DNA of 64,000 nucleotides, taken from Amoebophrya sp. A120. Its lineage: Eukaryota > Protista > Dinoflagellata. This document shows positions 818 through 37,485 of this stretch, one piece after another; position 1 is the stretch's first letter, and each line of letters opens with the position of its first letter. The stretch lies in the NCBI GenBank assembly GCA_905178155.1, contig CAJINV010000005.1, forward strand, positions 4,381,556-4,445,555, given 5' to 3'. Under the pieces are notes generated by a model. It had not been told where the DNA came from. It was given only the letters and a program-made list of their open reading frames with translations, and made no database searches. The translations under genes were made by a program, and so were the position numbers.

Positions 818-2266
818 ATGTGGATGAACACGGAGCCTTTGTGGGTGGAGTTGAACGAATTGGGCGCCGAGACCGGGGCGGCCGATCCGAATTCGTACCG
901 CCGGCGGCAGCTGCTAACCTGGCGGTTGTCCAAGTCCTACGTGCTCTACTGCCTGCTCCTGCTCGTCGCCTCCACCTTTTTGCTCTTCTACAACCTGAAG
1001 CGGTGGGTGCAGTACGGCCACCTGCCCGAGTGGGACCGGCACGTCTGGGAGGAGTGGCTCGAGATTGGGATCACCGTGTGCCTCACCGCCGAAACCGCCA
1101 CGACGCTGTACCTGCTTGGCTTCCGGAAATTCATGCGGTCCTACTGGCTTCGGTTCGATCTAGCCGTTGTCGTCGTTCTCTGGGTGTGCGTCTTTCTCGT
1201 CGCGTATCCGCTGTGACAACCGTTGCGGCCTGATGTCGCATCATCAAGGTTTATCCCCATAGTGGTGTTCAGCTGTCTTGTACTCGAGAAAATAAAGACC
1301 TTTGTTGTGCAGTAGCGCACATCTTGTCAGTACTGTGATTGACCTAGATTTGCATTTTTGTTTCTATACTCTCTTGTTCCGTTGCTGCCGTTTCTTTAGG
1401 GGGGAGAAAATAAAGTTGTCACAAGTGATACCTCCGCGTCCAAGCTCGGGTGGGTATGGATTGCAAAAATGTCTGGGTCTGGAAACTTGTGATGCTAAAA
1501 TGTGGATGATGAAAACCGTTCCGAATGCAACACAGCATGACAACTTTCCAGAGCGCTCTCTCATAGGGAATCCGCATGAGAAACTGCGTTATTTCCGCGT
1601 GTACAAAAGATGCTGTGACTTTTGTTGGCTATGCCATACAGATTTCCTAGGTATGGAGAGCTAGCATTGTTACAAGTTGCAACCTTCCAGACCCAGACGT
1701 TTTTGCGTTTGATAGTGGGTGATGACCGACAAAAACGCCGAGACGAAGAAGCAAGAGGACAGCATGTTCGAGAATCTGGAGCTTCCATTTTTGATTCTCC
1801 GCTTCACGGTGCAACCCCTTCGTGTCGTGTCGCAGATCACGCAGCTGGTGCACCGCACGAGCACGAGTGCCGACGTGCCTACGACAATGCACAACTCCCC
1901 CTCCCCATCATTTGTATCATGGCATGAACAGCAATACGAGCGTCAACAAGAATGCATGTGTTGCATGACAAACTTGCACAGGAGTGTAGTGCTACTTGGA
2001 CAACTGCCAGAACTTCTCATTCGACCAGTTTGAAGAGGCAATTCGTGGAGTTGGTGCATTGCATTACAAACGAGGCGGAGGGCGAGTTGTGCATTCTCAT
2101 ATTTCCCGAGGTGGATTTCGCAGCTTTGTCCCGTTCGAGTAACACCGCCGGAGGGGTGGAAGTAGGACAGCAACTCCCGATGGGCCGCAGGGGAGTAGAC
2201 GGTATCAACACCTCATACGAAAGAGGACCCTACGCGGCTAACTACTCGCGACCGGGACGCGAGTAG
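818..2266 (+). CDS. Multi-pass membrane protein resembling a voltage-sensor (S1-S4) domain; multi-exon
   Basis: Hydrophobic helices and YWLRFDLAVVVV; GT-AG intron 1204-1425; removing 1455-1719 gives KLGWVMTDK...FLILRFTVQPLRVV. Last exon boundary uncertain. Confidence 0.55.
1455..1714. mobile_element. TIR introner-like element, family A (260 bp), TSD GTGGG
   Basis: TATGGATTGCAAAAATGTCTGGGTCTGGAA...TTCCAGACCCAGACGTTTTTGCGTTTGATA; GTGGG at 1450-1454 and 1715-1719. Confidence 0.9.
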
Positions 2267-7124: not shown

Positions 7125-8123
7125 ATGCCGGGAACGATTGTTTGTGCGTCTGGGTACTTTGACCCGATCCACTATGGGAGTGTGAGGATTGAAATTGACC
7201 AAGTTGAAACAGTTTGCCATGCATAAAATCGATACCAGTTGGGAGCCCAATTTCCACGCAGCGCATGACAAATCTCGGCACCGTCTGAATCCAGTTTGTG
7301 ATGCTGTTTAGGAACAGAGGGCGTCTCTTGTCATGCTACTTTAGCAGCTCTATCGCAGACCCCAAACAGGCGGACAGTCGGTCTCACTTAGAATCCCTGC
7401 AAGAGAGGCACTTCGTGCCTTGCAATTTATGCATGAGAAATTACATCAACTTTGTCGATTTCAATCCTGACACATCCATATCCACCCGGGCCACATCGAG
7501 TACCTAGAAAGGTCGAAATCGCTCGGGGACAAGCTGTACGTGATCGTGAACTCAGACAAGCAGGCGGAGATGAAGAAGGGCAAGCCCTTCATGAAGTGCG
7601 TGGATCGCCTGAAAATAGTCCGGTCGCTCGCCTGCGTGGACGCCGCCATTGAGGCGTGCGACGCGGACCGGAGTGTATGTGCTTCGTTGCGGATCATCAA
7701 GCCGGACATTTTCACCAACGGCGGCGATCAAAAGAACGAAGGTATTTTTACACTTAGGTTTCCTTGTTCTTTCATCGCTGTGGAGATGTCTTCATCGACG
7801 GCTGCACTGACATATAGTGCAACGGAGAGTCATCCCCGTCGCTGAATGTTTCATTTGTAGGTGAGAATGACCGCAGATGGTTCCTTCCTCAAGCCCGCAG
7901 CTAGTATCGAGAGCGACGTCGATTTTTAACAACATCAATTACGAAACATCATGAAATGGCTGCATACGTGATGATCATCGCAGGTGTGCCAGAGGCGGTT
8001 GTGTGCAACGAGCTGGGAATCAAAATGGTGGATGCTTTGGGGGACAAAATTAACAGCAGTAGCTGGCTGATTGCGAATTCTTTGGGGGAAGAGAAGGTGG
8101 TGAAGGCGGACCCCAACCAGTAG
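7125..8123 (+). CDS. Cytidylyltransferase-family nucleotidyltransferase (TagD/RibL-like), 147 aa
   Basis: Exons 7125-7172, 7486-7741, 7984-8123 give SGYFDPIH|PGHIEYL, IVNSD, KPDIFTNGGD and KINSSSWL (HxGH and SSS motifs). Confidence 0.88.
7173..7480. mobile_element. TIR introner-like element, family C (308 bp), TSD TCCAC
   Basis: TATGGGAGTGTGAGGATTGAAATTGAC...GTCGATTTCAATCCTGACACATCCATA; TCCAC at 7168-7172 and 7481-7485. Confidence 0.93.
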
Positions 8124-13428: not shown

Positions 13429-16400
13429 ATGACGTACTACCCGCTTGTCTCGATTATTGGCTGTTCTCTCTTTGTCGCCCTCGTGCGGCTTGTGCACTTT
13501 CAGTCGCGCCCCGGGGACCGCGCGATCCACTGCTTGGATCGCAGTAAATCACCCCCAGTAGAAGGTCCTGCACAAGCTGTCGCGAATGCACTTCCCCCGA
13601 ACGAACCACAGCCGGCGGACGGCACGACAGCGCCAAATGTTGGCGAGCCACCTCCTGCAACACCCTCCGCGACTGCTGCAACCGCATCAGTTGCGTCACC
13701 TACGAGCAGCACGCCAGAGCCACCGGCTACTACAGCGAACTCAGGGAGTAGAAGCACAAATTGGTGGCCCTGGTCGGCAGATTCATCGAAAGCCAGTACT
13801 AGTGACAACAGCAAGCAAGAAAATCCGGATACAATAAATAAAGTTGATGGTGGTTCCTCGAAGCCAGGGCAGGTGCCGGTCGCCTCGCTGCCGGACTACC
13901 ACAGTGTCGTCACCGATACAGGTTTCTGCCGCAATAGCGCCTGCTGCATCGGCAGTCTGGAATCGGACAAGGGGACGCGGCCGTCGACCATGCAGGGAAA
14001 GTGCCTAGACGTCGAACAGTGCGCCGCGAATGCCCGGCCTTTGATCGAGGGCCTGCGGCGGCCCCGGCGCTACGCCTTCGTATTGAGCTTCTTCGGGCAG
14101 GTGCCGCAGGAGCTGGACTTTTTGCAGCAGCTTCCGAGCATCCAGCGCGCCATCGGGCGCATGCAAAGCCAGAAGCCGGGGGCTGTCACGGTGGACGTTG
14201 TCCTGCTGATTCACCCGGGCCGGCAGATTGCCGCGCACTACAATCCGCTGGACAAAACGGCGATAAAGCACCTGCAGGCAAAGCACAACGTGAAGGTCCG
14301 ACGCGTGCCCTGGACCATTCCCCCGGGCGCCCGCTTTGACCGGGGCAACGAAGGGTGGTGCGGCGAACAGGATTTCATCCGCCTGCACGCCTGGAACATG
14401 ACGGACTACGATGCGGTCGCCTATTACGACAACGACGTCGAGCTCCGCGGCGACTATCTGCCGCTGTTTGAGTGCGTGGACGGCCTGGATGTGACTCTTA
14501 CCACGACTGGCGGCGTGGGCGAGCCCATCAACGTCGGGTTTTTCGCGCTGAAACCGAAGGCGAAGCTACTGGAGGCCGCCGTCCACTTCTCAAAGGTCGC
14601 GGGGTTCGAACCCAAGCGAGGCGGCTGGGCCGACGCAGGGTTCTGGCCGAACCAGTACTACTTCATCGGGGCGGAGTGCGGCCAGGGCTACTGGCTCACC
14701 ATGCTGTTCCGGCGAGACCATACCGTCGTGCGCGAGGCGTACCGAAAGGCCGGGCTGCCGCTAACCGCGGTGCGGGCGGCGTCCATCGATCGCTGTGTGT
14801 GGAACTACCAGCTCTCTTCCGGGTGCGACGCCATTGGCGGCGCGAGGTGCGACAAGGTCATCGGGCACCACAAGCCCGCCCGGGCCGGGTCCGACGACAA
14901 CGAGTGTTTGAAGAAGGGAATTCAACAGTTGTACCGGGAAGACGGGGTGGAAGGTCTTGTAGTCTCAAGACCTGCTGTTCTTGCGGCGATGAATACGACA
15001 GCTTCACTTAGTACCCCCGCGATGTTACAGTTGAAGGACTTCCTGCCCGCAAAGTATCTCCCAAGCGAGAAGCTTGCAGAGACTACGCAGCCGGACGCCT
15101 CTGCGGCCGTGTCGCTCGCAAACCTGAAAGAGTTTCTGTCGCTGGGTCCGCTTCCGCAGCGACTCCCGTGGCCGGGACAGTGGAAGAACGGGCTGCCCAT
15201 CCAGTGCAAGCAGCCGGACTGGCTGGTCCGCAAAGATTTGCTGTCGCTCGACGTGAACCCGCACAAGACCAGTCGGCGAGTGCGTGCGGTGCTCGTGGTG
15301 AGCGTGATAACGCCGAAGGGCCAGGAGGATTGGGGCGCGGCGGAGAAGCGGCCGCCGTTCCTGCTCACAATGCTCGCGGCGTCGCTGCAGCACCTGCGAC
15401 GTTTCGGCCATGGCCTGATCCTGCGGCCGGACTTCACCCCGCAGCTGGACGGCACCCACTTGCAGGCCTGGCAAAAGAAAGCCTGCGACCGGGAGAAAAA
15501 GGACGAACGGCAGTGCATGAAGGACATGCAGCGGGAGAACTTCAACTGGGAAAAGCATTTGATGCTGAACGACTACCTGCAGTTGAAGTTCGGGTCATCT
15601 GGTACTCCACCGGGTACTAGCGGGGACGAGGACTCGCAGAGGTTGTATCGGTTTACGCACGTGGGCATGCTGGACGCGGACGCCGCCTTCGTCAACTTTC
15701 ACCTGGACTCGCTCGGGATTCTCGCTTGGAATTTAGCGAAGACAAAAAAGCAGGTGTTCGTCGGGAACGAAGATTGGTTGCGGGGGGAGAGCGAAGGCGC
15801 GCTGCTTTCGCACGCGAAGCGCGCCAACGGCGGCCTGATTTTCGCCGCGAACTCCAAGTTTTCGCGCAGCCTGTTCACCGATACCTTCCAGGCTCACGTC
15901 CGCGGGAACGAACGCACCTCGACCCCCTGGACAACGGGCGGCATCTATCAAAATGAAAAATCCCCCCTCCCCATATCAAAACGGAAATTTGTGATGCTGA
16001 TTTGTGACCACAAATCCGCTTTGTATTGCACAGAGGCACTGCGGCCAGATCCCCAGGCTACGTAGGGGCGTATGGGTCTAGTAGTTCAGCATGGCAAGCG
16101 GGTCACTTTTAGGGCGAACAGCATGACAAATCGCTTCCATAATGGGGCGGAAGCTTCTGCCCTTGTCTTCTTGCAAGACAGATGCGATTTGTGACCTCAA
16201 ATCCGCAACGCAAATTTTTGGAAACATACCTTTTTAATATGGGGAGGGGGGATTTTTCCTCTCAATAGCATCGTGGCGCAATGTTCGTCCAACGAGCAGA
16301 TCTGTTTGAGCGACTTGATGTACGGGCCCCCGCGGACGCAGGCCGGGGCGATTTTCCCCATGCACCGGTATTTTCTCCTCGGATCGGGGAAGTTTTGGAA

Positions 16401-18748
16401 CCGGGGCCGCGCACCACAGGCGCCCACGGTGCCGCTTCCGGACCACCAGCTGCACGTCATGCACTACATGGGAGGCGGTCGGCAGCAGGCGGTCGCAGAT
16501 CTGTGCGAAAATACGTACATTGCGCAGGCCATCGGCGAGAGCGCGCGCAACGTTCTCGGGGTTTGCGGGCAAAGAGTAAATCCGCCAATCAGCTGCTCGA
16601 GCCATCCCGATTCCCTCCTCCTGGCGAATACGGATGTTTACCCGAAAAAGACAGCGGAGCCCCAGGACCCCTGGAGCGGTCTAGTCGTTGATGCCAACGG
16701 CACAAATAAAAATACGCTGGTCCTCGCGCCGGGGAAAGTAGAGGCTGCGGCCCAACAACCCCCACTGGAACCCGGGGTCACCACACTGCCGCCAGCGGAA
16801 GTGAAAAAATCCGGTGCAACTGTTGAGACGGCCCCCGCCGCGCCCAACGTAGAAGTAGTACTCACGACGGCTGCCCCTGCGAACCCAAGCGCAGCTGACG
16901 ACCACGCGGACGGTACAAAAATCAAGAACGCCGCCGGGGCCGGACCGCTTACCAAAAAATGCGGTTCCGGGCAGCCCCCGACAGAGGCGTGCAGATTGCA
17001 GTACAGCTGCTGCGACGTGCAGAACTGGAGCTGCTGCGGGGAGGATAAGTTTGTCGTGCAGCCGAGGCGGGCCTTGCGGAACACGACGGCCGTGGGGTTT
17101 TACCTGCACGTCGGGGGTCGCGGCGAGTCCGCGGCGGTCACCTACCTGGCTTCCCGGGTGCTGTATTTCAACCCGGGCGCCCCCATCTACATCATGTCGG
17201 ACGGCGCCGAGCAGTACGAGGACTTCTGCCGCGAGCTGAGCCAAAAATTCGACTCAAAGTGCATCGCAGTGTCGTGCCCGTCCGCGGAGGACCGGTGGCA
17301 CCCGTGGCCGTTCTTCAAGCGGTTTCGCGACGTGGCGGTGGCGCTCCCGGAGGTCGAGTATCTGGTCATGCTGGAGCCCGACAACACCCTGCACTCGGCC
17401 GTGGACGTGAGCACGTTCACGCACGACGCGGGCGGGATCCTGGACCACAACGGGAACTTTGGGGAAAGCCTCGTCCAGTATGGGGAAAGCCTGGCGCAGC
17501 AGCTCCCGGGCAAGGAGACGTTCAAATGGGTCTACAAGGGCACGTATCAAGTGCAAAAATGTCTGCGTCTGGAAGGATGTAACCTGTGATGCGCATTTCA
17601 GAACACACAAAAATCTCTCATGCATAGGTAGCAAAAGCTGCCCACTTTCTGTCACCAAAATGGGGGACTTGTCATGCGTGTTCGGCATTGCGGAAGCTTG
17701 TCGAAACCTGTGATGCTAGAGCTTCCATGCCAGACCTTCTGCGTCATGCAGAAACAGCATGACTCTTCCAGACCCAGACATATTTGCATTTGATAGCACG
17801 GGGCTCGCGGGCGGCAGCTACTACCGGCGCACGGCGATTTTGGATGCGTTCGCGGACGAGGTGGCTCAAAAAATGGACTGGAAGAAGATCTACAAGCTGG
17901 GTCCCAGCGCCGCGGTCTACTCGTCCGACTTTGCGATGCCGATCGCGCTCGCGTTCCGCGGATGGACCTACGCGCCCTGGGGGGCGGTGCGCCAGGCCTA
18001 CGGGTCGAATCCCGACCCGACTCAGCCGCAGCGGAACGTCTCCATTATCCACTACAACCGCGACATCACCGGCGGGAAGCCGGCAACGCGCATCCGCTTG
18101 TCCGAAGCCGCCAAGGCGGAGGCCGGGGCGTCCACGACCACCGTGGGGCAAAGTCGGGAGGTGAACGCGGCTCCACCCGCACCACTTCCGGCGGACTGGA
18201 TGCTGTCGGTCGTGCGGGCCGGGAGGCGGGTCCGCGGCCCCAAGGAGGAGTGGGCGCGGCGCGCGATCAACATCTGCCAGATGTGTTGGAATCGGGAGGA
18301 GTACGTGCGCCGGTTCGGCACGGAGGTGTGCGCACCGAAGTACAGCTTCAACTACACCGCGGAGATGATACCGAAGGACGCGTATTGTGAAGAAAAATCC
18401 CCCCTCCCCATACCAAAACGGGATACTTCTGAAAATTTGTGATGCTGATTTGAGGCCACAAATCGTCTCTGTATTGCAAGAACGCATATCCAAAGATCTG
18501 GCCGCTTTCGGCAGGCAATTTGTAATGCTGTATGGCCTAGGGAGGACATGCCTGCCTTGCTAGGCCCCTACAGCAAAACGGCCCTACTCCAGCTTTGTAT
18601 CTGTGTGCAGTCCTCTACTGCAAGACAAATCCGATCTGTGTACGCAAATTCTTCATCACAGACTTCCACTTCGATATGGGGAGGGGGGATTTTTCCTTTT
18701 GATAACGCGAGACCCGGGCCGGCGGGGGCGATACAGCGGATGCGATAA
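13429..18748 (+). CDS. Large type II membrane multi-domain glycosyltransferase (GT8-like, GT34-like and a third GT-A-like module), about 1469 aa
   Basis: N-terminal TM helix; FIRLHAWNMTDYDAVAYYDND; MLDADAAF...NGGL...NEQ; VMLEPD. One continuous frame after removing three TIR elements. Confidence 0.7.
15946..16267. mobile_element. TIR introner-like element, family D (322 bp), TSD GCATC
   Basis: TATCAAAATGAAAAATCCCCCCTCCCCATAT...ATATGGGGAGGGGGGATTTTTCCTCTCAATA; GCATC at 15941-15945 and 16268-16272. Confidence 0.92.
17545..17795. mobile_element. TIR introner-like element, family A (251 bp), TSD GCACG
   Basis: TATCAAGTGCAAAAATGTCTGCGTCTGGAAG...CTTCCAGACCCAGACATATTTGCATTTGATA; GCACG at 17540-17544 and 17796-17800. 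Confidence 0.93.
18383..18704. mobile_element. TIR introner-like element, family D (322 bp), TSD ACGCG
   Basis: TATTGTGAAGAAAAATCCCCCCTCCCCATA...TATGGGGAGGGGGGATTTTTCCTTTTGATA; ACGCG at 18378-18382 and 18705-18709. Confidence 0.92.
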
Positions 18749-19575: not shown

Positions 19576-21226
19576 ATGGCACACGTCGAGCGCATATCAA
19601 ATGTAAAAATGTCTGGGTCTGGAAGAATGCAACTTGTCATGCTAAATCTGAAGCATTGAAAAATCTGTGTTGCATGATTGCCAAAAGTGGTCCAGTTTTG
19701 ACCAAGTCGGGAGGGAGTTTCTCATGCAGGGTAGGCATGAGAGAGATCGCGCAGAATCTGTCATGCTAGGTCCTGCATTCCAGACCTCGTGTGTCATGGA
19801 AAAGCTGCATGACAAATCTGACAATCTTCCAGACCCAGACATTTTTACAATCCATAGCGCAAGAAGCGACCGCTAGATGAGCATCTGGTGACGCTTCTCC
19901 AGACCGCAGACCCGCCGACGCGCGAGGAATACGCAGTCAAGAAGGTCGAGCTCGCACGAAAAATGGACCGGTTAGAATTCGTGTCCAAGGCCCGGATGAA
20001 GTTCATCAAGAATCTGCACGAGAACAACGAAAAGAAAGTGGACGCCATCCTGTGCCGACCACCGGGAAAACTTGCGGAAGTACTTACTACAACACCCTCC
20101 GTCGATGGGTTTACTTTGTTTTTTTTTTGTACGTGAGCTGCGCTCCTGGGTATTAATTAGTTGGTACATCCTTCTCGATGAAGAGCAGAAGCCTGTGTTT
20201 CGCTGCAGGCTCTGAGCGTTGCAACAGATGAATTCATTGGAGTACTATAGCTATCGAGTCAAAATGAAAATCGTTTTCCAGGTGTCTAAGCAGGGACTTG
20301 TGCAGGCGGACGCTTTATTTGAGACGCTGAAGCAGGATGCGCTGAAGAAGAAGTCGATTCCAAAACGGCTGGATATCGTCCACAATTACTGCGTCCATCT
20401 GGAAGTGCAGCAGAGCAGAGGTATTTCGTCCACTTGCGGTTTTGAATTTCCTGCAGTCACTATTATAGACGAGTTCGTTTTGCATCGTACAACATGCAAG
20501 GGAACTACTTATCGTGTTTCTGTTTGAGTATGACTACACGATAACTAAGAATTTCCTGGATCAAGAAAAATACATCAAGAGGACCAAAGCACCCCTTGTT
20601 AGAAGAAATGCAAACGAATGACGAAGCGAATGCAGTAAAACCACGCGACCACAACAGGCATGCAAACGCCGGATCAAATGGATCCCTTGCCATCGCCGGA
20701 GTTGTTTCAGGACATCAATTTTATGGACATGAATCCCACCTACACCGACTTGTTGAACAACGAACCCTCGCCGTTTAAGCCGGCGGATGGAGCCACGCGC
20801 GACCCGCTCCTCGCCGTCTGCTTGCTCCTATGAGAGTGAGTGTACTACAACTCCCCCTCCCCCTCTGTCATGCGAAAACGCAATTCCATTTCCAGCCACT
20901 GCCTCACATCGCTATCTTGCATAACGGACTTGGGAATCCAAACAGTACTATAATAGTTCGCACGCATTGTAATATAGTGATTTGTCATGCAGATGCCACT
21001 TTTCTGAGTCTGACCTGATCTCTATTGCTGTTCTTGGCTCCTTCAAATGAGGGGGAGAGGGAGTTGTGCTCACTGATAGCTCCAGCCGTACACGCCGCCA
21101 CCGCAAATCGTCGAGGCGCAGCAGCGGGCAAAAGCACGCGCGGTCGAGCAAGTGGCCGAGCAGAAGCGCATCGAGAAACTACTCGCGCGCAAGGAGAAGG
21201 AGCGGTTCGCGGCCCTAACTGCGTGA
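19576..21226 (+). CDS. Hypothetical helical protein, multi-exon
   Basis: MAHVER|KKRPLDEHL after removing the family A element; three GT-AG introns; AVCLL|QPYTPPPQ...FAALTA* after removing the family E element. Confidence 0.55.
19595..19856. mobile_element. TIR introner-like element, family A (262 bp), TSD GCGCA
   Basis: TATCAAATGTAAAAATGTCTGGGTCTGGAAG...CTTCCAGACCCAGACATTTTTACAATCCATA; GCGCA at 19590-19594 and 19857-19861. Confidence 0.93.
20829..21078. mobile_element. TIR introner-like element, family E (250 bp), TSD GCTCC
   Basis: TATGAGAGTGAGTGTACTACAACTCCCCCTCCCCCTC...GAGGGGGAGAGGGAGTTGTGCTCACTGATA (TIR with an indel); GCTCC at 20824-20828 and 21079-21083. Confidence 0.85.
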
Positions 21227-21938
21227 AGCAGGACGTTAGTTGTATATATTCTCTAGTTGATGTTGAGACGAGGAATCTATATGTAGTTTAATTGAGTTTG
21301 AGTAAGTTAGAAGTAGAAGAGCTCCAACCCAGTATGTGTGCCCAGGTCATTTCGCACAGCCCCTCGCATCCCATTCATTGCTGAGATCCTGTTACAAATT
21401 TCTACAAAAAAACTGTACCCCATTTTTTGTTGTTAGAAATGTTGGATCCCTAAATCATACGGACATTAAAGTGAGACGTGCTTTTTCCGCGACAACCCAC
21501 GAGGCTCTACTTCTCTCGGATTTTCCCTTTTTACACTAAACCAGTTCCCTTTTAAAACGAGTCAAAAATAATTTGCATCTGCACTGAGGCAAGTATCTCA
21601 GCAAGTGCAGGCATCAGTCATTTGCATTTTTAAGCGAGTCACGTGTAAGCATTCGGGATTTTGGGGACTCCCACAGCGGAGGTCAATGCAGTGCCATCAA
21701 AAAAGAAGGACTTTGTCATGCTACATAAGCATCAACTCGAACGGATCTGAAAACCTTGTACACCAGTTTGTCAAATGTCATGGTAAAGCATCAACACACG
21801 AGCAGCGCAGACCACGCCTGTAAGGAGGCACAGATGCCAAAGGATCTACGCATGTCGAAATTGGGCACGAGATGACGAAAACAGCTTATGAATGTTGTTC
21901 GACATCGTTCCGATTAGGTAGCACAATAAATCGGTCAA

Positions 21939-22160
21939 GATCCAGCTTCTCGCGTTCGTCGCAAGAACTCAGTGTAGTAGCAAGCAAAAATACCTCCATC
22001 CCTCTACCTGATCCAATCAGAAGTATATCGAGATCACCATTTTCTTGAAACGCTGTACGTCTGCCCAGCGCATCAAGCAGATCTTGATAAAGCAAAAGGC
22101 GATCTGACAAGATTGAGTTCTCGATCCACAGCAAATCTTGTTAGCTCTTCACCAAGGATC
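21939..22160. promoter_or_regulatory. Intergenic GATC cluster upstream of NOG1 (function unknown)
   Basis: GATC at 21939, 22010, 22032, 22080, 22101, 22123, 22157. Confidence 0.3.
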
Positions 22161-22492
22161 GTCGAGGCCAATAGATGACGTATCAAATTGCTCTAGGGCG
22201 ATGTAGACAAGCCAAATTATCGAATGCTCACCGACCTAAAAATGGTTTTTTTGAATATCACAAGCCTCTGCTTTTATCAAAAAACAGAAAGGACAGACTG
22301 CAGTCCGGCACTGGTCAGTAGTAAGAAAGAAAAGCGTAAACACTTATTTGCACCGCATTCAGCCACTGCCGCTCTAGTCTTTACGTTTGTCGAAAGTTCA
22401 GCTGTTGCGTAGAAAATAAAGAACTAGCCGGAAAATAAATTCTAGTTGCCTTTGTTCTTTCACTTATTTTTATCTAGAATTGATACAGCAAC

Positions 22493-25400
22493 ATGTATAA
22501 GTTCAAGGAGATCCAGACGGTCCCGCCAGCGGACGCGATGATTGACATCATCCTCTCCAAAACGAACCGGAAAACACCGACGGTGGTGCACCCGGGCTAC
22601 AAGATTTCGCGGATTCGGAATTTCTACTTGCGCAAAATCAAGTTTTGCCAGTCGGCGTACGCGGAAAAGTTCCAGGATATCCTGTGCAAAAATATCGTAC
22701 TCGTAGTGATCGCAATTATGCATTACAAATCTACTTGATAAGGTAAATGCGCATTACAAATTCAATTTGTAATGCTGAGCCAATTTGTATTGCGATTTAT
22801 ACTAGTACGATACTTTTGCAATGCATACAGGACATGCTCTCGCAATTTCCGCGGTTGGACGACATTCACCCCTTCTACGCAGATTTGTGCAATGTGTTGT
22901 ACGACCGAGACCACTACAAACTCGCGCTGGGGCAAATTTCCACCACGAAAAACATCATCGACAACTGCGCGAAGGACTACGTGCGCATGATGAAGTTCGC
23001 CGACTCTCTGTATCGGTGCAAGATGCTCAAGCGCGCCGCGTTGGGACGCATGTGCACCGCGGTCAAGAAGTTGGGGCCGAGCTTGAAGTACCTCGAGGAG
23101 GTCCGACAGCACCTCAGCCGCCTGCCAAGTACGTTTTTTGTTCATCTTCTACAGCCGATCTTCGTCGTTCTACAGGGCCTTGGTTTATTGTTCAACTGCG
23201 TTCTACTCGTCTTGTCGCTCTGATGTTACAACTTACTACTGCGCATAAAGATAAAAAGATTTTTTTCGCGTAGAAGAAATCGAAGGAAATTATCTTCGTG
23301 CGTGCTCCCTAGCAAGGAATCTTGATGGTTCTACTTCTTCTCTTCACAGGTATCAATCCCACGACACGCACCCTGATTCTTACCGGGTTCCCGAACGTCG
23401 GAAAAAGTTCTTTCATGAACACGGTGACAAATGCCAACGTGGATGTGCAGCCTTACGCGTTCACCACCAAGTCTCTATTCCTCGGCCACATGGACTACAG
23501 GTAGATACGATCTATGTATAGTTATTGATGCGGGGCTGATGAGAATAGATGAAAAACAAAAAGAAAAACTACCGGTGCAGCGTATCCAGTGGCACTTCTT
23601 TCTTTGCACTACTAGTAGTTGTATCTATGCAGACAGTCCGCCTTGGTGACTGTGCCCATTGCTAGTAATATTTTTCCATGATCGAAAAATAATAAATGAA
23701 ATCACAGATACACCCGGTGGCAAGTGATCGACACGCCGGGGATTTTGGACCACGCTTTGGAATATCAAATGCAAAAATGTCTGGGTCTGGAAGGATGCCA
23801 GATTTGTCATGCAGGATTTCCATGACCCATGAGGCCTGGAATGCGGGACCTAGCATGACAAACTCTGTGAGGTCTTTGTCATGCCTACACTGCATGAGAA
23901 ATCCCCGCCCAACTTGGCCGAAACTGGGCAGCTTTTGGCACTCATGCAACACAGATTTTTGCATGATCCAGATTTAGCATGACAAGTTGCAATGTTCCAG
24001 ACCCAGACATTTTTGCAATTCATATGGAAGAGCGGAACACGATCGAAATGCAAGCGGTGACTGCTCTGGCGCACATTCCGGCGACCATCCTCTACTTCAT
24101 GGATATCTCTGAAACGTATACCTTTATTCTGGCTTCTTGATGTAGTAGTTTTTGTGCTTCTGAGGATGATGTTTTTGCGATTCTCTACTAATTTTGCTGT
24201 GCAGGAGCTTTCCTTGCTGTAGTCCATATGCTATTCATATCGCGAAGAAATCGCAAACTGAATTTAATACCTTAACATCACAGCTGCGGACGCAATTTGC
24301 GTGAGCAAGTGAACCTGTTCAACTCACTGAAGCCGCTTTTCCGGGGAAAGCCACTGCTGATCATCGTGAACAAGATTGATTTGCGAAAAATGGACGACTT
24401 GCAGCCGGAAGAAAAGGCGCTGCTCGAATCCATGACGAAGGACATGGAGAACGAAGTCACGGTATAATTTTTTCTTTGTTGTCGAAAAAGAAAAACGGAG
24501 ATTAAATGCGCTGGATTATTGAACATGTTCGCTGATGTACTTAGCAGACACTCCAAAAATCGATGCAAATCTGGGTGTCCGTGGCTTGCGACTGATTTTC
24601 CGGCGTCAGGCAAAGATCAGGTTCACTAGCCGCGTTTCGTGCACAAGAAACTTTCGCGAAGATGATATTAGATAAAGTAGTCTTAAGCGTAATTACTTAT
24701 ATTCACCGTCTTGTACTGAAACTGAAAACAGCTTTTTCCGGTGTCCGTGCAGCAGAAGGAGGGTGTTGACGCTGTGCGAACGAAAGCGTGCGACTTGCTG
24801 CTTTCCCGCCGGATCGACAGCAAGATCAACAGCAGCAAGGTAGACGCCATCAAGAACCGGATCTTCATCGCGGAACCCACGAATCCGAGCATTGCCAGCA
24901 AGCGGCCCCCGTGCATTCCGGAAAGCGTGGTCTTGCAGCAACAGCAGCAGGCCAGCGCAAGCAGTAGCAGCAGTAGCGCCGGCACGACCCAAGCGACGAG
25001 TGCAGAAGGGACGAAGAGGGTCTTGGAGAAGGATCTGCAGGAGGAACACGGCGGTGCGGGTGTCTACGTGGCGGACTGGAACAAGGAGTGGCAGCTGTCC
25101 AACAGTAATTGGAAGTACGACGAGATTCCGGAAATTATGGACGGCATGAACGTCGCGGACTTTATCGACACCAACATTTTGGAAAAGCTGGCGAAGCTCG
25201 AGGAGGAGGAGCGCGCGGAGCTGTTGGCCGAGGGCCTGGAGGACACGGAGCAGGTGTTGAAGTCCTGGCAGGACTGCGAAAAGGAGATCGGGCTGATGCA
25301 CCGGGCGATCAAGGCCAAACAGAACGCGAACCGCGATCGCAAGGCCCGCAACGCCATGGGAACAGGGGGCATTGAACGCAAGCGAAACAAGTCGTTGAAG

Positions 25401-26144
25401 GAAGTCGTCGAGCGCTTGGAGAAGCGAACGATCGGCGAGGAGAAGCCGGTTAACGTGGAGAAATTACGAGGTCGGTCCAAGGTGCGCAAGCGCCTGAATC
25501 GCGACGAGGAAGAGACCGGGGGCAAGAAGCGAAAGGCGGTATACGCTACTTCTATATGCTTGTCGCAATCAATTTCTTCGATTCAGAAATAAAACCTTTT
25601 TATGGAATCTTTTCACCATTTTCACGAGCAAAAGAACCTTCTCGTCTAGCTGGACTTGTTCCTAGCGGTGGATTCGCATTTGATTGCTGCACCAGCGATC
25701 ATCTAAGTAGAACAGCGCGGCCTCGGCTTACTACATTGTGCCGGTGATGTTATTGCACAAATTCCTCGATTCAACATCACAATGTCAACATGATAATCAA
25801 ACTTCTCTGCTCAACAGGACGACGGTACGGCTATGGACGTGGACAACGACAAGAAATCGGCGAAGAGAACGTCGAAATCGCTCATGCGCTCAAGAACAGC
25901 GGGGCGCTCCAAGTCTGTCAAGGTCCGGGGTCTCTCCGTGCACACGGATCGCAGCCAGAGCCGGATCGCCACCAGTATCGGGCGGCCCGAACTGCAGGAG
26001 AAGGCGGAGAAGGAAAAGCGAAAGGCGGGGAAGGTGCGCAACAAAGAGGCAAGAAAGGGCGAGGGCGACCGGCACATTCCGGACTTCAAGCCGAAGCACT
26101 TGTTTACGGGAAAACGAAGTATCGGCAAAACCGATCGGCGCTGA
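22493..26144 (+). CDS. NOG1: Nucleolar GTP-binding protein 1 (60S biogenesis GTPase)
   Basis: [68 protein letters not shown]|[13 protein letters not shown], and C-terminal [17 protein letters not shown]; five GT-AG introns and two TIR elements. Confidence 0.96.
22678..22827. mobile_element. TIR introner-like element, family F (150 bp), TSD CAGGA
   Basis: TATCCTGTGCAAAAATATCGTACT...AGTACGATACTTTTGCAATGCATA; CAGGA at 22673-22677 and 22828-22832. Confidence 0.9.
23763..24024. mobile_element. TIR introner-like element, family A (262 bp), TSD TGGAA
   Basis: TATCAAATGCAAAAATGTCTGGGTCTGGAA...TTCCAGACCCAGACATTTTTGCAATTCATA; TGGAA at 23758-23762 and 24025-24029; reverse-orientation relative of 19595-19856. 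Confidence 0.95.
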
Positions 26145-27124
26145 GAGACTTTTTTATGCTCATGATCAAGATATCGTTATTGTCCCTGCAACGGCCGTGG
26201 TTTTTTGTCGCTACATTCAGGCATTTTTTAGTCTCGCTTCGCAGGCTATGGCTACGTGAAAAATGTGATTGAAGAAAAACGTGGTGATATTCGCGGTATA
26301 GGAAAGTGCATTATTTCACGAAATTCGTCAGGCGGTCTTGGGCTTTCGCTTTGAGAGCGCTTTTTCTGCGCTATGCGCTTTGTGAGAGATGCACGAATTA
26401 TGCAACTTTGTTCGTACTCACTTAGTTTCGGTGTTGAGCTTTTTCTCGCCACTTCCGTTCCATCTGCTGTGCGTGCATTCGCATTACTTATGCTGCAATC
26501 GTATACATGAAATCTTGCTGTCCACCTCGTCGTCGTATAAATTGGCTCGTCCCCCCTGGCTCTTCGTTCCTGTGACACGTAGCGCTATCCCTAATGCAAA
26601 GGTCGTCGGTGATATATTCCTTCCTTGTTTTTTGGCATTCCACGTTTCCCGTTTCGGCTTTTTTTACCCTTCCTCGGTACGTGCCTCAGTTTGTTTTGAT
26701 CGTGCAAGGATTATTTGTATACGCAGACAGGAACTACAAGCTGCGCTTTCGTTCTATAGGCAGGCTTCAGCTTTTCGTTGTCGTAATGCCATGTGCGCAA
26801 GTTCTTTCGTCAACTGTAACTGACTTGAATGCATACCAGAAGTTGATGTCCGATATATTTTCCCAGGCTCTCGTCATCCTTTGATGAGTTGATCCCACGC
26901 ACTACCCGCACACCTCGGAACTGATAGTTTAAATAACTGTCAAGAATAGGAGGAGCAAGTTCCACAGCTTCCTTGAGAACATAGCGCACACGACCATCGT
27001 TTCTAGTTGTAGTCAGCCTTGAAGAGTTGGAGTTCATTCCTTCGCCTGTAGGATTGCGAGCGCAACTGTATCTCTTGTTTATTGCGGTCTTCTTGTACAT
27101 TAGCTTTTTTCGTGAACAAGCAGG

Positions 27125-28701
27125 ATGTCGACCAGTCAAGTTGGACTGCCGTACAAAGGCCGGTCCCTGGCAGTGAGCTCCACGGTTCGCAGAGCGCCGA
27201 AGTTTTCCTTCGGCTCCGCTACTTCAGGACTGACCAAGCTGCTCGCAAAAAGCGCCGCAGACGTCCCAGGGCCTGGCGCTTATGAGCCTGAAGGGTCACG
27301 CGACGGCCGCAAGAGGACAGCACAGGCGTACGCTATACTTTAAATTCATAATATTTTTGCTGGGGGGCATCTTCACGTGCCCAAATACTTATATTCTCTC
27401 TGCAGTTTTCAGACCTGCTATGCTTTTGTTTGTGACACAATCGATTGCTTCCTTGTGTGCCTCGATGAAATTCAATTTCAAATCCATTTTTCGGTTAAGC
27501 AGAGAAAACCAAACAATCAAAATCGAGTTTGCGTGTTTTCCTCCTCATCACAGGTTTTCCTTCCGCCCGAAACCACGCTCATTGCAGTCGAACACAAACG
27601 CCGTTGTTGGTCCGGGCAGCTACGACCCCAGCGATAAGCTTTCGAAACCAGCATCAAGGTATAACTTATGTGTAAAAGAAACACAAACACGACATAGGCC
27701 GGAAAGTTAAAATTTTTGCTTCCACTCTCTCGTGAAGATGTGAAGAATGAAGTAAAGAGTTTGCTGCAAGAGCCCCGGCACTTTAATGAAAATATGATGA
27801 AAAATTTATTACAGTCGCGGCGGCTTTTCGCATGCGCGGCGGTCCGCGGGACCGTCATCCTTCAAGAGCTTCCAGCCCGGTCCTGGAGCGTACGATACGC
27901 GCGCAGACATGACAAAGCAAGGGCTGCAGTTCAGCTTTCGGCGTAAACCTGCCGCTATGGATCCAACACGAGGCACGCCTGGACCAGGTGCCTACGAGGC
28001 GCCGGCATCCGCAGCCTCCAATTCGTATCTAGAAAATTATGTTTTTCGATTTGATTTTCATTTTAGCGTTCCACCGGACCACGAACAACACTGCTCATTC
28101 AGTACAGCATTTTATTTTTCTTTGCAACTTTGACTTTTGTTCATTTTGCTATACACCAATGAATGCCTTTCTACACCAACTCAGCGCGACGGCAAGGTCG
28201 GTGCATGGGATCGCGAAGCACTCCAGCCGAGCAGTGAAGTTTTCCGGGAGCCAGCGGAATCTAGCGCCCTTCCGCAACGAGAACCCGGGTCCAGGTGCGT
28301 ATGACCACGCGGCTGGCACCTCAGTCAGCGCGAGACAACCCCCAGCCTATTCGATCCGCGGGGGCGGACGGCCAAAACTCATACGCATCGCAAATATGTC
28401 TGGGTCTGGCAAGCTGTGTTGCTGAATGGTCATGATTGAGTGCCGCGCCTCTAAGTGCAGCGACGCATGACAAATCTCTCGAACGCTTCCTAATGCGTAG
28501 TGCGCACTACAAACTGCGATCTTGTATGACGAAAGAGTGGCACTCTTGCTGCATATGCGCAGCACAGATGTTTCACGAATGCAAGACACACAATACAGGC
28601 ACAACCTTTCCAGACCCAGACATATTTGCATTTGATAACTCAAGCGGCCTGACAATCCGGGACCCGGTGCGTACGATGCAGCGTACACGCAGTTCTCGTG
28701 A
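27125..28701 (+). CDS. SHIPPO-1/ODF3-like PGP-repeat axonemal protein
   Basis: Repeated PGPGAY/GPGSY motifs with FSF across several GT-AG-separated exons; PKL|KRPDNPGPGAYD after element removal. Confidence 0.8.
28382..28637. mobile_element. TIR introner-like element, family A (256 bp), TSD ACTCA, TAC left end
   Basis: TACGCATCGCAAATATGTCTGGGTCTGG...CCAGACCCAGACATATTTGCATTTGATA; ACTCA at 28377-28381 and 28638-28642. Confidence 0.9.
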
Positions 28702-31642: not shown

Positions 31643-33976
31643 ATGGAGCTTCGGTTTTTTATATTGCTGAGTCCAGCAGCTTTGCTGCGTGCAAGTGAAG
31701 ATGTTGTAGTTTTGTCGGACACAAGCGAAGCGCAGCTACCGCCGTACTCGCCCCGGTCTCCGTGGTGCTGGTCCGGCTGGATAGAGCGGTTACCCGACAC
31801 GGAATTTGTTTTCGGGGACTTGTGCGCGCAGCAGCTCTCCGTCCATCAAGATCACTTGGAGCCGGAAAACCAATTTTTCATCATCGAGGCCGCAAAAAAG
31901 ATGACTGCGGCGAGCAAGGAGCAGGCCCTGGCCATGATGGCCACGCTTTCAGCGGAAGCGCACAGCAAATCGACTATCGACGGGGAGCGCTGCCTCGAGG
32001 GACTGCACTACGTGACTCAGGTGGAACAAGCGTGGCAAAACCGCCGGTCGGATCCGCGCTGGAGTACTCCAGACCTAGAATGGAAGTGCCGCATGCTGTG
32101 TGACCTACATCCGCGGTGTGCAGTGTACTCGTTTACCTCTGCGACTGCCGTGTGTGCGCTCAAAACCCGTGACGCGCTCGAAGGACCCCTGATAACAGCT
32201 GAAGACTCTGTTGCGAACAGGCGGATCATCAAAGTGTGTGCGGCGCGTGGTTGTTCAGCGGACGTTGCGCTGCGGCTGCATGCTCCCGAGCTTTCCATCA
32301 GTCCGCAAGAGCGTGCGTGGCGCGTGTGCTCGGATTGGCTGGAAAACTACTGTGAGTCAGAAAGTAATCTAGAGCGATGTGCAGCGGTCGCTGCCTTCGA
32401 TAGACACGCAGCTGCCTCTACCACCAGTGGGAACGGAATTGCTGCGGATGACTCACACGACACGAAAAATGCTTGCTGTGTTGCGAAGGAGGAAGTCGAG
32501 TCCCTTCTCCTCGTCGGGCACGACAACAAGCAGAACACCTTTTGCTCCGGCGATCATTTTGCCAATCTTTTTGACTTCTCCAACCCCGAAACACGCAGAA
32601 GCTGTCAACTGGCTGGAGATGATGGAGGAGGATCTGCTTCTTCGGACGAGGGTCTAGCGACTTGCTGTGCGCCGACCGCTGAGATCATGAGCACACTTAC
32701 GCCGATGTCGACGGATCCCGTAACTGCAAGTAACGAGAAGTGCACTCTGGATATGTGCCGTAGTCCCTCGGTGTTTGACCAACACAACGCCGCTGTTTTT
32801 GACTGTTGGGCGGGTACACTCGGCGAAAGCTCGTTCCCATGTGGAGGTCGCAACACGGTGGCGCAGAAGACCGGAAAAATCGCGCAGCTGAACTCAGAAA
32901 TTTATTTCCAATACACCTGCTGCGCACAGGAGCGCGCAGTGGCCCCAGGTGCTTCTTTCGCGAGAAAGGCTGCTGTTCCAGAGCAGGCCGCGCTGGTCAA
33001 CAATCGACCCTCACCGCCGGAAGAAGGTGATGCCCCGGTACAACCGCCGCCGCCGGACCAGGAGGGCCTTGAGTCAGAAGCCTCTTTCGCCCCGATCGAC
33101 CACCCATTTGGCGGTGCTGCACCAGCTGGAAGTTCCGATGAGCCAGCCAAAGTGGAAATTGCGGGATATGGCGTTCTCAAGTGTTACATTCTCAACTGTT
33201 AAGTACATGATTTGTCATGCAAAATTCCAATCAGAATCGACACGAGCAAGCTGCTTCGCATGACAAGTTCCCGAAGGGACAAACAGGATGAGAATCTGCG
33301 CCAAATCTGTCATGCAAGAGGCGCAATCTTCCCCCTGTCAGTTTGCCATTTTTGCATCGCAAACTTATGTAACAGTTGAGAATGAAACAGTTGAGAACGC
33401 CATACGGGACAGTGTGTGCTCCAGAACGCGGAAATCCGGTATGCGAAGACACAAGGGCTGACGCTGCTGCAGCGGACGGTGGGCGCAGTGTTGCCGTCGT
33501 ATCAACCTTGCGGAGGACTACAACAGGTCGGCGAACAACATCCACCGGTAGTACAACTACCTAAATGGCCCCTGTCAGCGGGGCAGTGTGCGAGCGCGTG
33601 TTTTTACTTCGAGAAGGACATCAACCTAATCGAACAAAACAGCGGTGGCTCTACTTCAAGGGTACCACTGCGGCAAGAACTCGGTACTAAAGGTTCCCGT
33701 AGTTCCGATCTGATTTCCTGTGATTACTACGTTTTTCGCGAAAATGGGTCTCAGTGCAGTCTTTACGGAAAGTTGGTCGACAAGAACTCTACCGCCTTCA
33801 CCACTCTGGATGCAGCTGCGGCACTCGTCGGCAGTGCGGACGACGTGCTCGCAACGAAGGTCGCAGAAGCCGTCACTGTCGGAAAAAAGTGCAGGCAGCA
33901 CGCGGATTGGCCGAGGGTGCAAGAAGATTTGAATGAGGTTCGAACGCGATGGAAATGCCAAATGAACGAACCGTAA
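31643..33976 (+). CDS. Secreted Cys-rich protein with PAN/Apple-like domains
   Basis: Signal peptide; CRMLCDLHPRCAVYSF...CALK and CASAC...CDYYVF...CSLY; EIAG|QCVLQN join after element removal. Confidence 0.65.
33167..33404. mobile_element. TIR introner-like element, family G (238 bp), TSD CGGGA
   Basis: TATGGCGTTCTCAAGTGTTACATTCTCAACTGTTA...TAACAGTTGAGAATGAAACAGTTGAGAACGCCATA; CGGGA at 33162-33166 and 33405-33409. Confidence 0.93.
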
Positions 33977-34573: not shown

Positions 34574-37485
34574 ATGGCCTCTGCTGCGAGCAGCTTGCCG
34601 CCGGAGGCGGTGTCCGACGCCGGGATTGTGTTGATAAAGATGCGAAACCTGGTGTACTCCACAAGAAGTATCGGGTACCGCGCGATCCGGCACGCTATCG
34701 CGAAGACGAGGGGGGCCGAGTTTCTGACCGTGAAAGAAGCCGACGAGTGCTTCCGCAGCGCCTCGGTGTTTTTGGACAACCGGGAGTTGTGCACGCTGTC
34801 CCGAAAGTACGGCGACGGTTCCTTTGTGGACAAGAAGCTTTCCCTGGGAACGGAATTCTGTGGCGACCTGATCCCGACCGAGATCAGCAGCGCCCCAAGA
34901 AGAGGCTTGGTGCAGAACGTGTGGAAGAGCTGCTGTGCGGCGTTCGGTAGCGACCAAATCGACCTGCTCGACTTCGTGGAGGCCACAAACCCCGGCGCTT
35001 TCCCGCACGTGAAGGCGGGGCGCGTCTCGCACGAGGAGTGCAAACAGCTACTGCTGTCGGAGCTCGAGGACCTCATGCTCATGCTCGGAAAGTCAGCGGT
35101 ATTTTCGTCTTCTGGATCATTTATTATCATGGATGGTAGGCCTAGGCGTAGGAGAGAGCACTTACAAAAGACAACTCAGGTCACTTTCAAATCCGATTCT
35201 ATTTGCTTTCGACTAAGTAGTAGAACCTGGGGACTAGGTTACTTACTGTGTAAAAATCATTGGCAATGATGAACTAATATCAAGGTGGACGCGGAAGTGT
35301 TCATGCAGTATGGCACGGAAGTCTCGTCGCTGTGCGCGCTCGATGGACAGTTTCAGAACGTGATGGGCATGTTTTCGAAGAAAACAGCTTTGAAAGACGA
35401 CACGCTCGACCGACAGCTCGCGTTGGTGGACCTCTTCGTCAGGAAATTCAACGAGATGAAGGACCACCGAGCAGTATTTATGCTGTTTCACTACTACGAC
35501 CCGGCCGGCAGAATGGCGCTGGACTACCCGTCCTTCGAAGCGATGTGCATCGGAATCGGCGTCAACATCACACCGGCCGAGAAAAGACTTATCTTCGACT
35601 TCTTCGGACCCACTGGAGTTATAGTGGTATGAAGTTTACTAGTTAGTTTTGCTTTTTTTTCTGTGCACAGCTTTTTCCATGAATGCTAGGCACGCTACAG
35701 GTCAGCATTTACTAGATCTGGATCGTGCTGCCTGTTGGAACAGGTATTTTATCGTTTCAAAATAAAACAAACACATAATTTTTCTGCAGAGCGGTCCGTT
35801 TTTGCGATACATCTTCTACTGCATGGAGTATGCAAGCGTCGAACTTGGCAGACCTGCGGACTACGCTGAGATTAGGGCCAGCGGACCCGCGGCACACGAT
35901 CCCGACGCGGAACCACGGGAGCTGTGTGCCAAGATCCGAAATCACCTGATTAAATTCCATCCGCGGGGGCTGTCAGTGGTACAATGTCGTTGTCGCCTAC
36001 TTTTGAAAAGTAAACATGACAGTTTTAATATTACCACGTTCCACTTCCAGCTGGAAAAGGAAAGGATAAGAAAGAAGTTTTGTCACGTTACAGGAAAAAT
36101 AAATCTCGGCTCTTGATGATTCTATCACCTTCTCAGGCCTTCAACATTATGCACACGTTGAACCGAGTTGGAAGCAAGATTGACAAGCGGGAGTTTCAGT
36201 GGGGCCTGGACGTTTGCGGCCTTCGCCTAGGTACCGCGGAAGCGGACTACCTGGAGTACTTTTTTTCGTCCGGCACGCCACAGGTCGACAAAGAAGAATG
36301 GCTCGACTACTTGCGCGGCGATCTCGTCGCCTACGAAGAACTGAAAGCGGAAGCAAAAAAGAGAATAGACCAGGTAGAGCGTTTGATAATTTAGGACGTA
36401 CTTCTACTTTACTTCTTTTGTAGTTTGATGAAAAACTGCAAGTGAGCAACGATTGCGTCGTGAAAGAAAACTTGTACTTCTTCGCTCATCCAGATTTTGC
36501 AACAGGTAGCAAATAATGCGTGCTTACGTCTTGGAAGATTTGGGGAATTTGCAAACTGTCTCTAGGTGTGCCCCGGCGAAAATGAGTACCACAATGAGGA
36601 CTACAAGATGAAGAAGTGGGAGCCCGCTTTTGGGGGCAGCAGCTTCGTGGCGGCGCAATTTATTCTCGATCAGTACTGCGTGGACCACCATCCGATGGTT
36701 GACGACGTCGGTCCGGAGAAGCTGCGGAAAGAGTTCTTCGACTACCTCGGCGAATCCCTGGCCATCGGCCGGGCGGCAAAAGCCAAGGTGGTCAAATACC
36801 TGTGTGACGAGGGGCTGCAACACGACAGGCAGAAGTGGCGCAAGTACTTGTACACGTGTCTGCCCTCCTATGGAAGTGTCAGAATCGAAATTGACAAAAT
36901 CGAAATAATTTGTCATGCATAAAATGGCTTCCAGTTCGAACCCAGTTTCTAACTGGCGCATGACAAATTCTGGTGGTGCCTAAATCCAGTCTGTAATGCT
37001 GTTTAAGCAAAGAAGGGCGATTCTCTCATGCTACTGTAGCAGCTCGAGATACAACCCCAAGCAGGCTTATAATCGGTCTCACTTGCCTGCTCTGCAACAC
37101 ACGCATTCCGCGTCATGCATTTTATGCATCACAAATTTGTCGAGCTTGTCAATTTCGATCCTGACAGTTCCATACCTCCAGAAACCCGTCCGAAAACGTG
37201 GTCCCCGGAGAGGAGTTATCAAATGCAAAAATGTCTGGGTCTGGAAGAATGCAACTTGTGATGCTGCATTTGGATTCCAGAAAAATCTGTATTGCATGAG
37301 TACCAAAAGGAATGCAATTTTTGCTACGCGGAGAGGGCATTTGTCATGCGGAATAGGCATCAAGAAGCTCTCAAAAAATCTGTGATGCTAGGGCATGCAT
37401 CACAGACATCAGGGCTCGTGCAAAACGTGCATGACAAGTGTCAGAACCTTCCAGACCCAGACATTTTTACAGTTGATAGGAGTGA
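34574..37485 (+). CDS. Calcyphosin-like multi-EF-hand protein, multi-exon
   Basis: NPGAFPHVKAGRVS, YYDPAGRMALDYPSF, IDKREFQWGL...VDKEEWLDYLRG; the stop TGA forms only after removing 37217-37483. Confidence 0.65.
36869..37174. mobile_element. TIR introner-like element, family C (306 bp), TSD CCTCC
   Basis: TATGGAAGTGTCAGAATCGAAATTGACAA...TTGTCAATTTCGATCCTGACAGTTCCATA; CCTCC at 36864-36868 and 37175-37179; colinear with 7173-7480. Confidence 0.93.
37217..37478. mobile_element. TIR introner-like element, family A (262 bp), TSD GGAGT
   Basis: TATCAAATGCAAAAATGTCTGGGTCTGGAAG...CTTCCAGACCCAGACATTTTTACAGTTGATA; GGAGT at 37212-37216 and 37479-37483. Confidence 0.93.

Follow-up and report, generated by a model that had tools for sequence, protein, structure and literature searches.

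The 64,000-nucleotide stretch analyzed here (hereafter the window) came from the dinoflagellate Amoebophrya sp. A120 (contig CAJINV010000005.1, positions 4,381,556 to 4,445,555 of the forward strand). Its genes were interrupted by short elements bounded by TAT and ATA and by a 5-base direct duplication. Judged from their sequence, these were the introner elements of A120 that have already been published (Farhat et al. 2021, PMC7789003). A protein encoded in the window showed 100% identity to one named Amoebophrya sp. A120. A prediction made from the letters alone had proposed that such elements were removed irrespective of their orientation, pointing to two opposed copies at 19595 and 23763. 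The features that bore on this proposal were the following (forward and reversed denote direction within a family).

19576..21791, + strand: gene of 229 amino acids up to its poly(A) site, host of the elements at 19595 and 20829
19595..19856: family A introner, forward (reference copy); duplication GCGCA; after codon 6 of the 229-amino-acid gene; joint 19588>19856, 267 bases skipped in 4 of 4 RNA-type runs; stop at amino acid 27 if retained
20829..21078: introner with weaker inverted ends; duplication GCTCC; 255 bases skipped in 3 of 4 runs
22493..26309, + strand: NOG1 gene, host of the elements at 22678 and 23763; Pfam NOG1_N, MMR_HSR1, NOG1 and NOGCT; end taken from a transcript contig
22678..22827: introner of the 150-base family within NOG1_N; duplication CAGGA; 155 bases skipped in 2 of 4 runs
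23763..24024: family A introner, reversed; duplication TGGAA; inside the NOG1 GTPase domain; joint 23757>24025, 267 bases skipped in 3 of 4 runs
15946..16267: family C introner, forward, in a 1484-codon frame; 327 bases skipped in 4 of 4 runs
17545..17795: family A introner, forward, in the 1484-codon frame; 256 bases skipped in 3 of 4 runs
18383..18704: family C introner, reversed, in the 1484-codon frame; 327 bases skipped in 4 of 4 runs
58439..58702: family A introner, reversed; from alignment and the restored frame
58776..59038: family A introner, forward, in the same frame as 58439; from alignment and reading frame
4598..4879: family B introner, opposite in direction to 45779 and 55603; from alignment and codon model
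45779..46057: family B introner; from alignment and reading frame
55603..55881: family B introner; from alignment and reading frame

The two focal copies were colinear reverse complements in + strand genes, as had been proposed. The element at 19595-19856 aligned without gaps to the reverse complement of 23763-24024 with 222 of 262 bases identical (84.7%), compared with 65.7% and gaps on the same strand, and after trimming of the 35-base ends the interiors were colinear only when reversed (score 268 versus 13). The + strand of the host of 23763 followed from the NOG1 domains, and that of the host of 19595 from GT-AG introns and the poly(A) tail at 21791; three pieces of the 229-amino-acid product were tested and had no Pfam match. 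The inversion described for family B was likewise borne out, since the copy at 4598-4879 matched 45779-46057 (80.6%) and 55603-55881 (83.3%) in reverse and these two matched each other directly (87.1%). The adjacent family A copies at 58439-58702 and 58776-59038 also pointed in opposite directions (69% when reversed; interior score 97 versus -4.5). For their hosts the codon model gave +44 versus -8 (a frame inside its training set), and for the host of 4598 it gave +19.7 versus -11.9 (a frame outside that set).

Elements that combined TAT and ATA termini with matching ends and a perfect 5-base duplication occurred 19 times in the window and 0 times per shuffle in 20 shuffles. The window held 24 elements in total, 23 reported by the finder and a degenerate one at 1205-1430, and their directions were mixed within family A (5 versus 4 of nine copies), family C (2 versus 2) and family B (2 versus 1). 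Excision of the elements together with one duplication copy each produced long + strand frames, such as that of 1484 codons over three elements. A further candidate at 47191-47419 was rejected; the frame stayed open with it kept.

Removal from transcripts in both orientations

The contigs providing the RNA evidence also skipped four GT-AG introns, and one of them had a poly(A) end on the + strand; therefore they were derived from transcripts. Between 15800 and 24200 they skipped seven of seven elements, each by exactly the element plus 5 bases (in order 327, 256, 327, 267, 255, 155 and 267). The skipped elements included family A copies in forward (17545, 19595) and reversed (23763) direction and family C copies in forward (15946) and reversed (18383) direction, and a single contig jumped 15946, 17545 and 18383 together. 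Thus the central claim of removal regardless of direction held in these contigs, and it was not the case that one orientation stayed unspliced in these two families. For 58439, 58776 and the family B copies the evidence of removal was the reading frame. NOG1 and other hosts would be truncated if the elements were retained.

Contigs from the DNA run, at a depth of 42-45, extended 24-27 bases into all four ends of the focal elements and therefore indicated that bulk DNA keeps them. This check covered 15 of 401 joints, and since contigs drop rare variants, rare empty sites could escape it. Low-depth contigs with unremoved elements (20799-21108 and 18425-18693) were present alongside the joined form in RNA-type runs, and these may represent precursor, retention or carry-over of DNA.

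Orientation ratios were obtained from the window and from additional loci in which removal was judged from reading frames. A scan for family A ends yielded 134 loci. Of these, 78 had sufficient length and were used; they came from metagenome records of a close relative, in which one protein piece was 98% identical to A120. Together with the window they contained 397 distinct elements, of which 324 were kept and 73 were dropped because they had no strand call or matched at less than 3 of the 5 duplication bases. The strand was called by the codon model, trained on window frames, and local and neighborhood calls agreed in 209 of 215 cases. All nine families with at least 5 called copies showed both orientations, with ratios of 68:50 (family A), 29:11 (the 150-base family), 17:22, 14:23, 19:11, 5:6, 8:3, 5:6 and 3:2. 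The 150-base family alone departed from an even ratio (p=0.006, uncorrected; 21:7 in coding frames), and the pooled counts were 184:118 against 170:132 expected (P=0.011). There was thus no strong orientation bias, as the original prediction implied, with both directions found in nine families, but probably a mild one, of about 60:40 in the pooled counts. If kept, 204 of the 209 copies in supported coding frames introduced a frameshift or an added stop. Moreover, an A120 gene model joined across copies of family A and of the 150-base family in both orientations (locus L056).

Ends of the elements and the cut register

The elements were about 110-350 bases long, occurred in many copies and had no coding capacity, which fits non-autonomous transposons with terminal inverted repeats (miniature inverted-repeat transposable elements). 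They began with TAT in 312 of 324 cases, and mismatches between the arms amounted to 2% at positions 1-3, 24-34% at positions 4-10 and 9-10% at positions 11-28. The finder did not require a direct repeat; an exact one of 5 bases flanked 295 of 378 elements, and it had no consensus and a flat base composition. In fifteen of the 378 the inverted ends were good, while at the 5-base offset 0 or 1 base in 5 matched (L004:10802, L038:6329, L024:2009 and others). Some of these showed longer repeats (8 bases at L038:6329) or were inner matches, and it is possible that they had other duplication lengths.

Because removal was constantly the element plus 5 bases, the border can slide over six equivalent positions, which hides any signature. 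In 242 of 280 copies none of GT-AG, GC-AG, GA-AG or AT-AC was present in any of the six registers, which leaves these copies without canonical U2 or U12 ends (GT/GC-AG, AT-AC). GT-AG was possible in 8 of the 280, and the two focal copies had no canonical splice pair in any register. Both focal copies folded into a rod closed by TAT and ATA (z -9.3 and -9.8). Among interior columns, 5 of 1204 differed by orientation at p<0.01, where 12 were expected, and there were no orientation-dependent 5-mers. With no orientation-dependent constraint on the interior and removal both ways, the signal is therefore confined to the ends. The part of the prediction that placed the recognizable features in symmetric ends was thus upheld, the rod being the same either way.

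The prediction had also invoked a bidirectional motif, and such a motif was found: TGTSATGC occurred at 9.3 per kb inside elements and 0.07 per kb in flanks, on both strands, in families with unrelated ends, and often 25-65 bases from each end. In the 150-base family, however, just 1 copy in 40 had it near the ends, and the member of that family in the window was removed all the same; any role of the motif in removal is conjectural. It is a candidate site for a transposase or a host factor.

The outermost ten bases of family A existed in two variants that were shuffled relative to the interior (for example in 19595, 23763 and 1455), which suggests exchange between ends. The copies at 19595 and 23763 had reversed interiors, yet the same start on the + strand.

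In the transcript sense, the 5' triplet deviated in 12 of 324 elements (TAC 10, TAA 1, TTT 1), with 0, 1 and 11 changes at positions 1, 2 and 3, and the first T had 0 changes in 324. The 3' triplet also deviated from ATA in 12 of 324, with 6 changes at the last base, 3 at the middle and 3 at the first (mirrored 6/3/3); the finder allowed one deviation per element. This terminal polarity was significant by permutation (p=0.001; 0.012 in the coding subset and 0.002 after adding two copies from locus L001). Since positions 1 and 3 deviated oppositely, it probably did not reflect a mutational strand bias, which would be expected to push both the same way. The different changes tolerated at the two termini therefore indicated that the removal machinery is polar, contradicting the symmetric recognition that had been predicted. 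The canonical donors placed here started with GTA in 9 of 9 cases and with GTAY (GTAT or GTAC) in 8 of 9; T was commoner than C at the fourth base, which matched the preference for TAT (312) over TAC (10).

The two duplication copies differed in 44 of 267 elements, and the mismatches were distributed uniformly over the positions of the duplication (p=0.44). Five junctions with mismatched duplications were informative about the position of the cut. They belonged to two A120 gene models: two junctions were in the model of the window, and three set the related strain against an A120 model. At position 1 (three junctions) and position 3 (one of those three) the models retained the left copy, and at position 5 (two junctions) they retained the right one; therefore the 5' cut fell 1 or 2 bases before TAT. 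The junction at 10219-10676 of L056 was left unscored as its flank crossed a neighboring element. Homologue searches for locus L024, made to read duplication positions 1 and 3, gave no match, and guesses on the retained copy from the codon model and AT bias were uninformative. In the register with the cut 1 base before TAT (the other being 2), donor-like bases would occupy +2 to +4. From the sequence, the intron would then start with N-UAU or N-UAC, its invariant T at +2 and its tolerated change at +4, as in the organism's own donors. The U at +2 is the most fixed donor base of spliceosomal introns. The nine top A120 motifs of Table S4 in PMC7789003 all had T second, which was compatible with this register; having been placed by the HISAT2 aligner, they were not used as support.

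Candidate machinery and known systems

On balance, we favor the explanation that the elements are mirror-ended, transposon-like inserts removed in both directions together with one duplication copy, likely by a polar, spliceosome-derived machine that reads only the ends. The direct observations behind it were the removal of the element plus 5 bases both ways, retention in DNA, lack of GT-AG, symmetric ends and differing 5' and 3' tolerance. A DNA transposase would insert the element with a 5-base stagger, and the inverted repeat would fold the pre-mRNA into a rod, drawing the ends together. The 5' cut would be made 1 (or 2) bases before TAT, giving an intron start of N-UAU or N-UAC, in effect the organism's GUAY donor with its first base unconstrained. 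At the 3' end the cut would be fixed 4 (or 3) bases past ATA, with distance rather than AG deciding its place. The end read forward would serve as the donor-like UAU and its complement AUA as a 3' ruler, possibly also providing the branch A. The machine would most likely be a derived spliceosome, perhaps without U1, with a relaxed donor and a 3' distance rule. Since both signals lie within one inverted repeat, orientation would be invisible to it. According to the text of Farhat et al. (PMC7789003), U2, U4, U5, U6 and most spliceosomal proteins were found in A120, and U1 was not.

It is a reasonable but tentative extension that one rule applies to tens of thousands of A120 introns regarded as signature-free: a U1-independent start at N-UAY and an AG-less end four bases past the AUA at the hairpin foot. 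The donor and the 3' marker would then be mutually complementary, which might permit insertion at any coding sequence, phase and direction with scarless removal; we hold this part with the same reserve.

Several points weighed against a spliceosome-derived machine of this kind. The RNA evidence came from four contig sets whose RNA label was guessed and which represented at most 2 samples of 1 study, and the action of a spliceosome on these elements is conjectural. There was no sign of RNA-level selection on pairing: stems contained 226 G-U and 238 A-C pairs, with no G-U excess, and the sense fold was more stable than the antisense one in 12 of 23 elements, a null result from a set that included the false element 47191 and omitted 1205 and 1880. 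Given the lack of G-U excess, transposon ends fully account for the symmetry, and any part played by pairing in removal is conjectural. The polarity was built on 24 deviant ends, several of the TAC ends sharing one end type. The register came from predicted proteins in which 1 and 2 bases were not separable. At the 1-base offset the first intron base was A in 86 copies, G in 82, C in 64 and T in 48, with no preference for G, and AG at the 3' cut was not enriched (21 versus 19 expected). Finally, of 31 mismatches between duplication copies in coding frames, 23 were at the third base of the codon, compared with 42% for a fixed register (p=0.0004).

The main alternative, though a doubtful one, was a separate protein endonuclease-ligase that recognizes the rod and the TAT/ATA at its base. 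It would cut at a fixed offset on each side and join the exons, a mode already proposed for the nonconventional introns of euglenids. It would account for the 242 of 280 copies without GT or AG in any register, for the strong rods in both orientations and for the failure to detect U1 in A120 (text of PMC7789003). Moreover, Euglena cuts are likewise offset from the terminal stem, and the authors favored non-spliceosomal factors (PMC12501133, as far as its text was available). However, the tolerated 5' variants coincided with the organism's own spliceosomal donors GTAT and GTAC. The stem-breaking 5' TAC (10) was also commoner than the wobble-compatible 3' GTA (2), which points to reading of sequence more than pairing.

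It was improbable that the pair of cuts slides along the 5-base duplication between molecules at constant length, so that either copy enters the mRNA. The third-position excess described above speaks for such sliding, as does the fraction of synonymous mismatches (19 of 31, against 26% for neutral change and 33-39% for a fixed register, p 0.002-0.015). However, the excess was similar at outer (12/15) and inner (11/16) duplication positions, and the five gene-model junctions shared one narrow register. The excess could reflect either a sliding register or conversion of one copy from element-free alleles, which would be expected to yield the same pattern.

Library artefact and excision from DNA were unlikely, and we rate each of them lowest. 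Homology-driven skips, whether template switches of the library reverse transcriptase or polymerase jumps over the hairpin between duplication copies, would suit RNA evidence that consisted entirely of assemblies from libraries without a recorded method. Hairpins are a setting for such artefacts, and direct repeats are given as another in the literature excerpts available. However, NOG1 and other hosts were broken without removal, the element at 1205-1430 was removed at the same length in a gene model though its duplication copies shared 2 of 5 bases, and such skips give no reason for the invariant 5' T. Excision in an expressed subset of chromosomes, like that of ciliate internal eliminated sequences, would be naturally orientation-blind with symmetric transposon-like ends, and repair through the duplication could retain either copy, but DNA contigs entered the element ends unbranched at the uniform depth given above, low-depth unremoved-element contigs stood beside joined ones in RNA-type runs, and the terminal polarity tracked the transcript strand.

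According to the text of PMC7789003, A120 introners start with TAT followed by seven variable bases and an A run, carry inverted and direct repeats, show RNA-supported removal and number about 29,850. The elements met here shared this anatomy, the short direct repeats at exon borders, the repeated families and the removal without GT-AG. In the same text the splice signature was not clear, the direct repeats measured 3-5 bases, the borders were unknown, and no cognate transposase was reported. To this the present analysis adds that removal took the element plus 5 bases each time, that both orientations were counted, that the termini are polar and that the cut was narrowed to 1-2 bases before TAT. 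For Amoebophrya, no mention of orientation, of a fixed length or of the register was found in the available text and supplement text of that paper (figures aside), nor in the available text of PMC12130899, PMC9860276, PMC11453091, PMC12005148, PMC13326754 and PMC11282704.

Introners of Polarella glacialis and Aureococcus are inverted-repeat transposon introns with target duplications that occur on either strand, one direction being favored (10.1101/2020.10.14.339549, in the portion available; Huff et al. 2016 on Aureococcus is known through it). They form introns in both orientations, as here. Their GT/GC/GA and AG sites come from the element itself or from the duplication, so that particular targets are needed, whereas the A120 elements had no target consensus, showed no recruitment of AG from the duplication and lacked such a pair in 242 of 280 copies. 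The contrast with the spliceosome implied by the original prediction was not supported: an inverted repeat makes any signal inside it blind to direction, and the introners of Polarella are spliced in both directions at ordinary sites. The elements are known and the either-way property is known elsewhere with canonical sites only; here it occurred without them.

Euglenid nonconventional introns (Nomura et al. 2025, PMC12501133; PMC11282704; both in part) likewise lack GT-AG, have terminal inverted repeats and border-blurring direct repeats, are cut at an offset from the stem that is nearer on the 5' side, and are suspected to derive from miniature inverted-repeat transposable elements. They leave as circles, and carry a CAG/CTG motif with offsets of 3 and 5-6 bases and a purine after the 3' cut. 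In contrast, the present elements had TAT/ATA, offsets summing to 5 and no visible purine rule, and the signature N3-CDG...CHG-N5-6 was absent. The word orientation did not occur in the Euglena paper (PMC12501133) as available. In Fritillaria borealis, transposon-derived non-canonical introns are removed by an adapted U2 spliceosome (PMC11282704 and PMC13326754, in part), which is a precedent for a spliceosome-derived machine. That lineage is different, its preferred ends are AG-AC and AG-AT, and its U1 is modified rather than undetected as in A120.

More than 60% of Amoebophrya introns are without GT-AG, apparently in the absence of U1, and their mode of removal was left open in 2021 (text of PMC7789003). 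The constancy of the element plus 5 bases accounts for the signature previously missed, and removal both ways places the signal in the ends. Together, terminal polarity and the narrowed register amount to a specific rule that is testable on RNA reads at mismatched duplications. If true, it would show how a host can leave a transposon almost without effect wherever it lands in coding sequence, and so explain the invasion; the range of what the spliceosome, or a new machine, can recognize would also become wider.

Other elements and gene arrangement

The remaining elements of the window were as follows.

1205..1430: degenerate introner; duplication copies 2 of 5 alike; element plus 5 bases removed in gene model P0001; sets the cut 0-2 bases before TAT
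1455..1714: family A introner, reversed; removed in gene model P0001
1880..2101: introner with TAC start; duplication copies 3 of 5 alike
4928..5168: family A introner, forward
7173..7480: family D introner
28382..28637: family A introner, reversed, with TAC start
33167..33404: introner in a 708-codon frame
36869..37174: family D introner, direction as in 7173
37217..37478: family A introner, forward
55932..56252: family C introner, reversed
62785..63038: family C introner, forward, shortened
63074..63325: introner with one synonymous duplication mismatch (position 4)

All long frames and identified genes in the window (ion transport, NOG1, WDR75, DnaJ) were on the + strand, which fits the co-oriented gene blocks reported for the genus Amoebophrya (text of PMC7789003). 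A switch between convergent gene blocks was seen at L001:225-1573 and 1729-6890, which offers a control for end polarity that depends on the strand. On the minus strand of L056:3691-11583, one gene model of 661 amino acids contained about 20 introners of several families and three GT-AG introns, and some of its exons between elements were just a few codons long.

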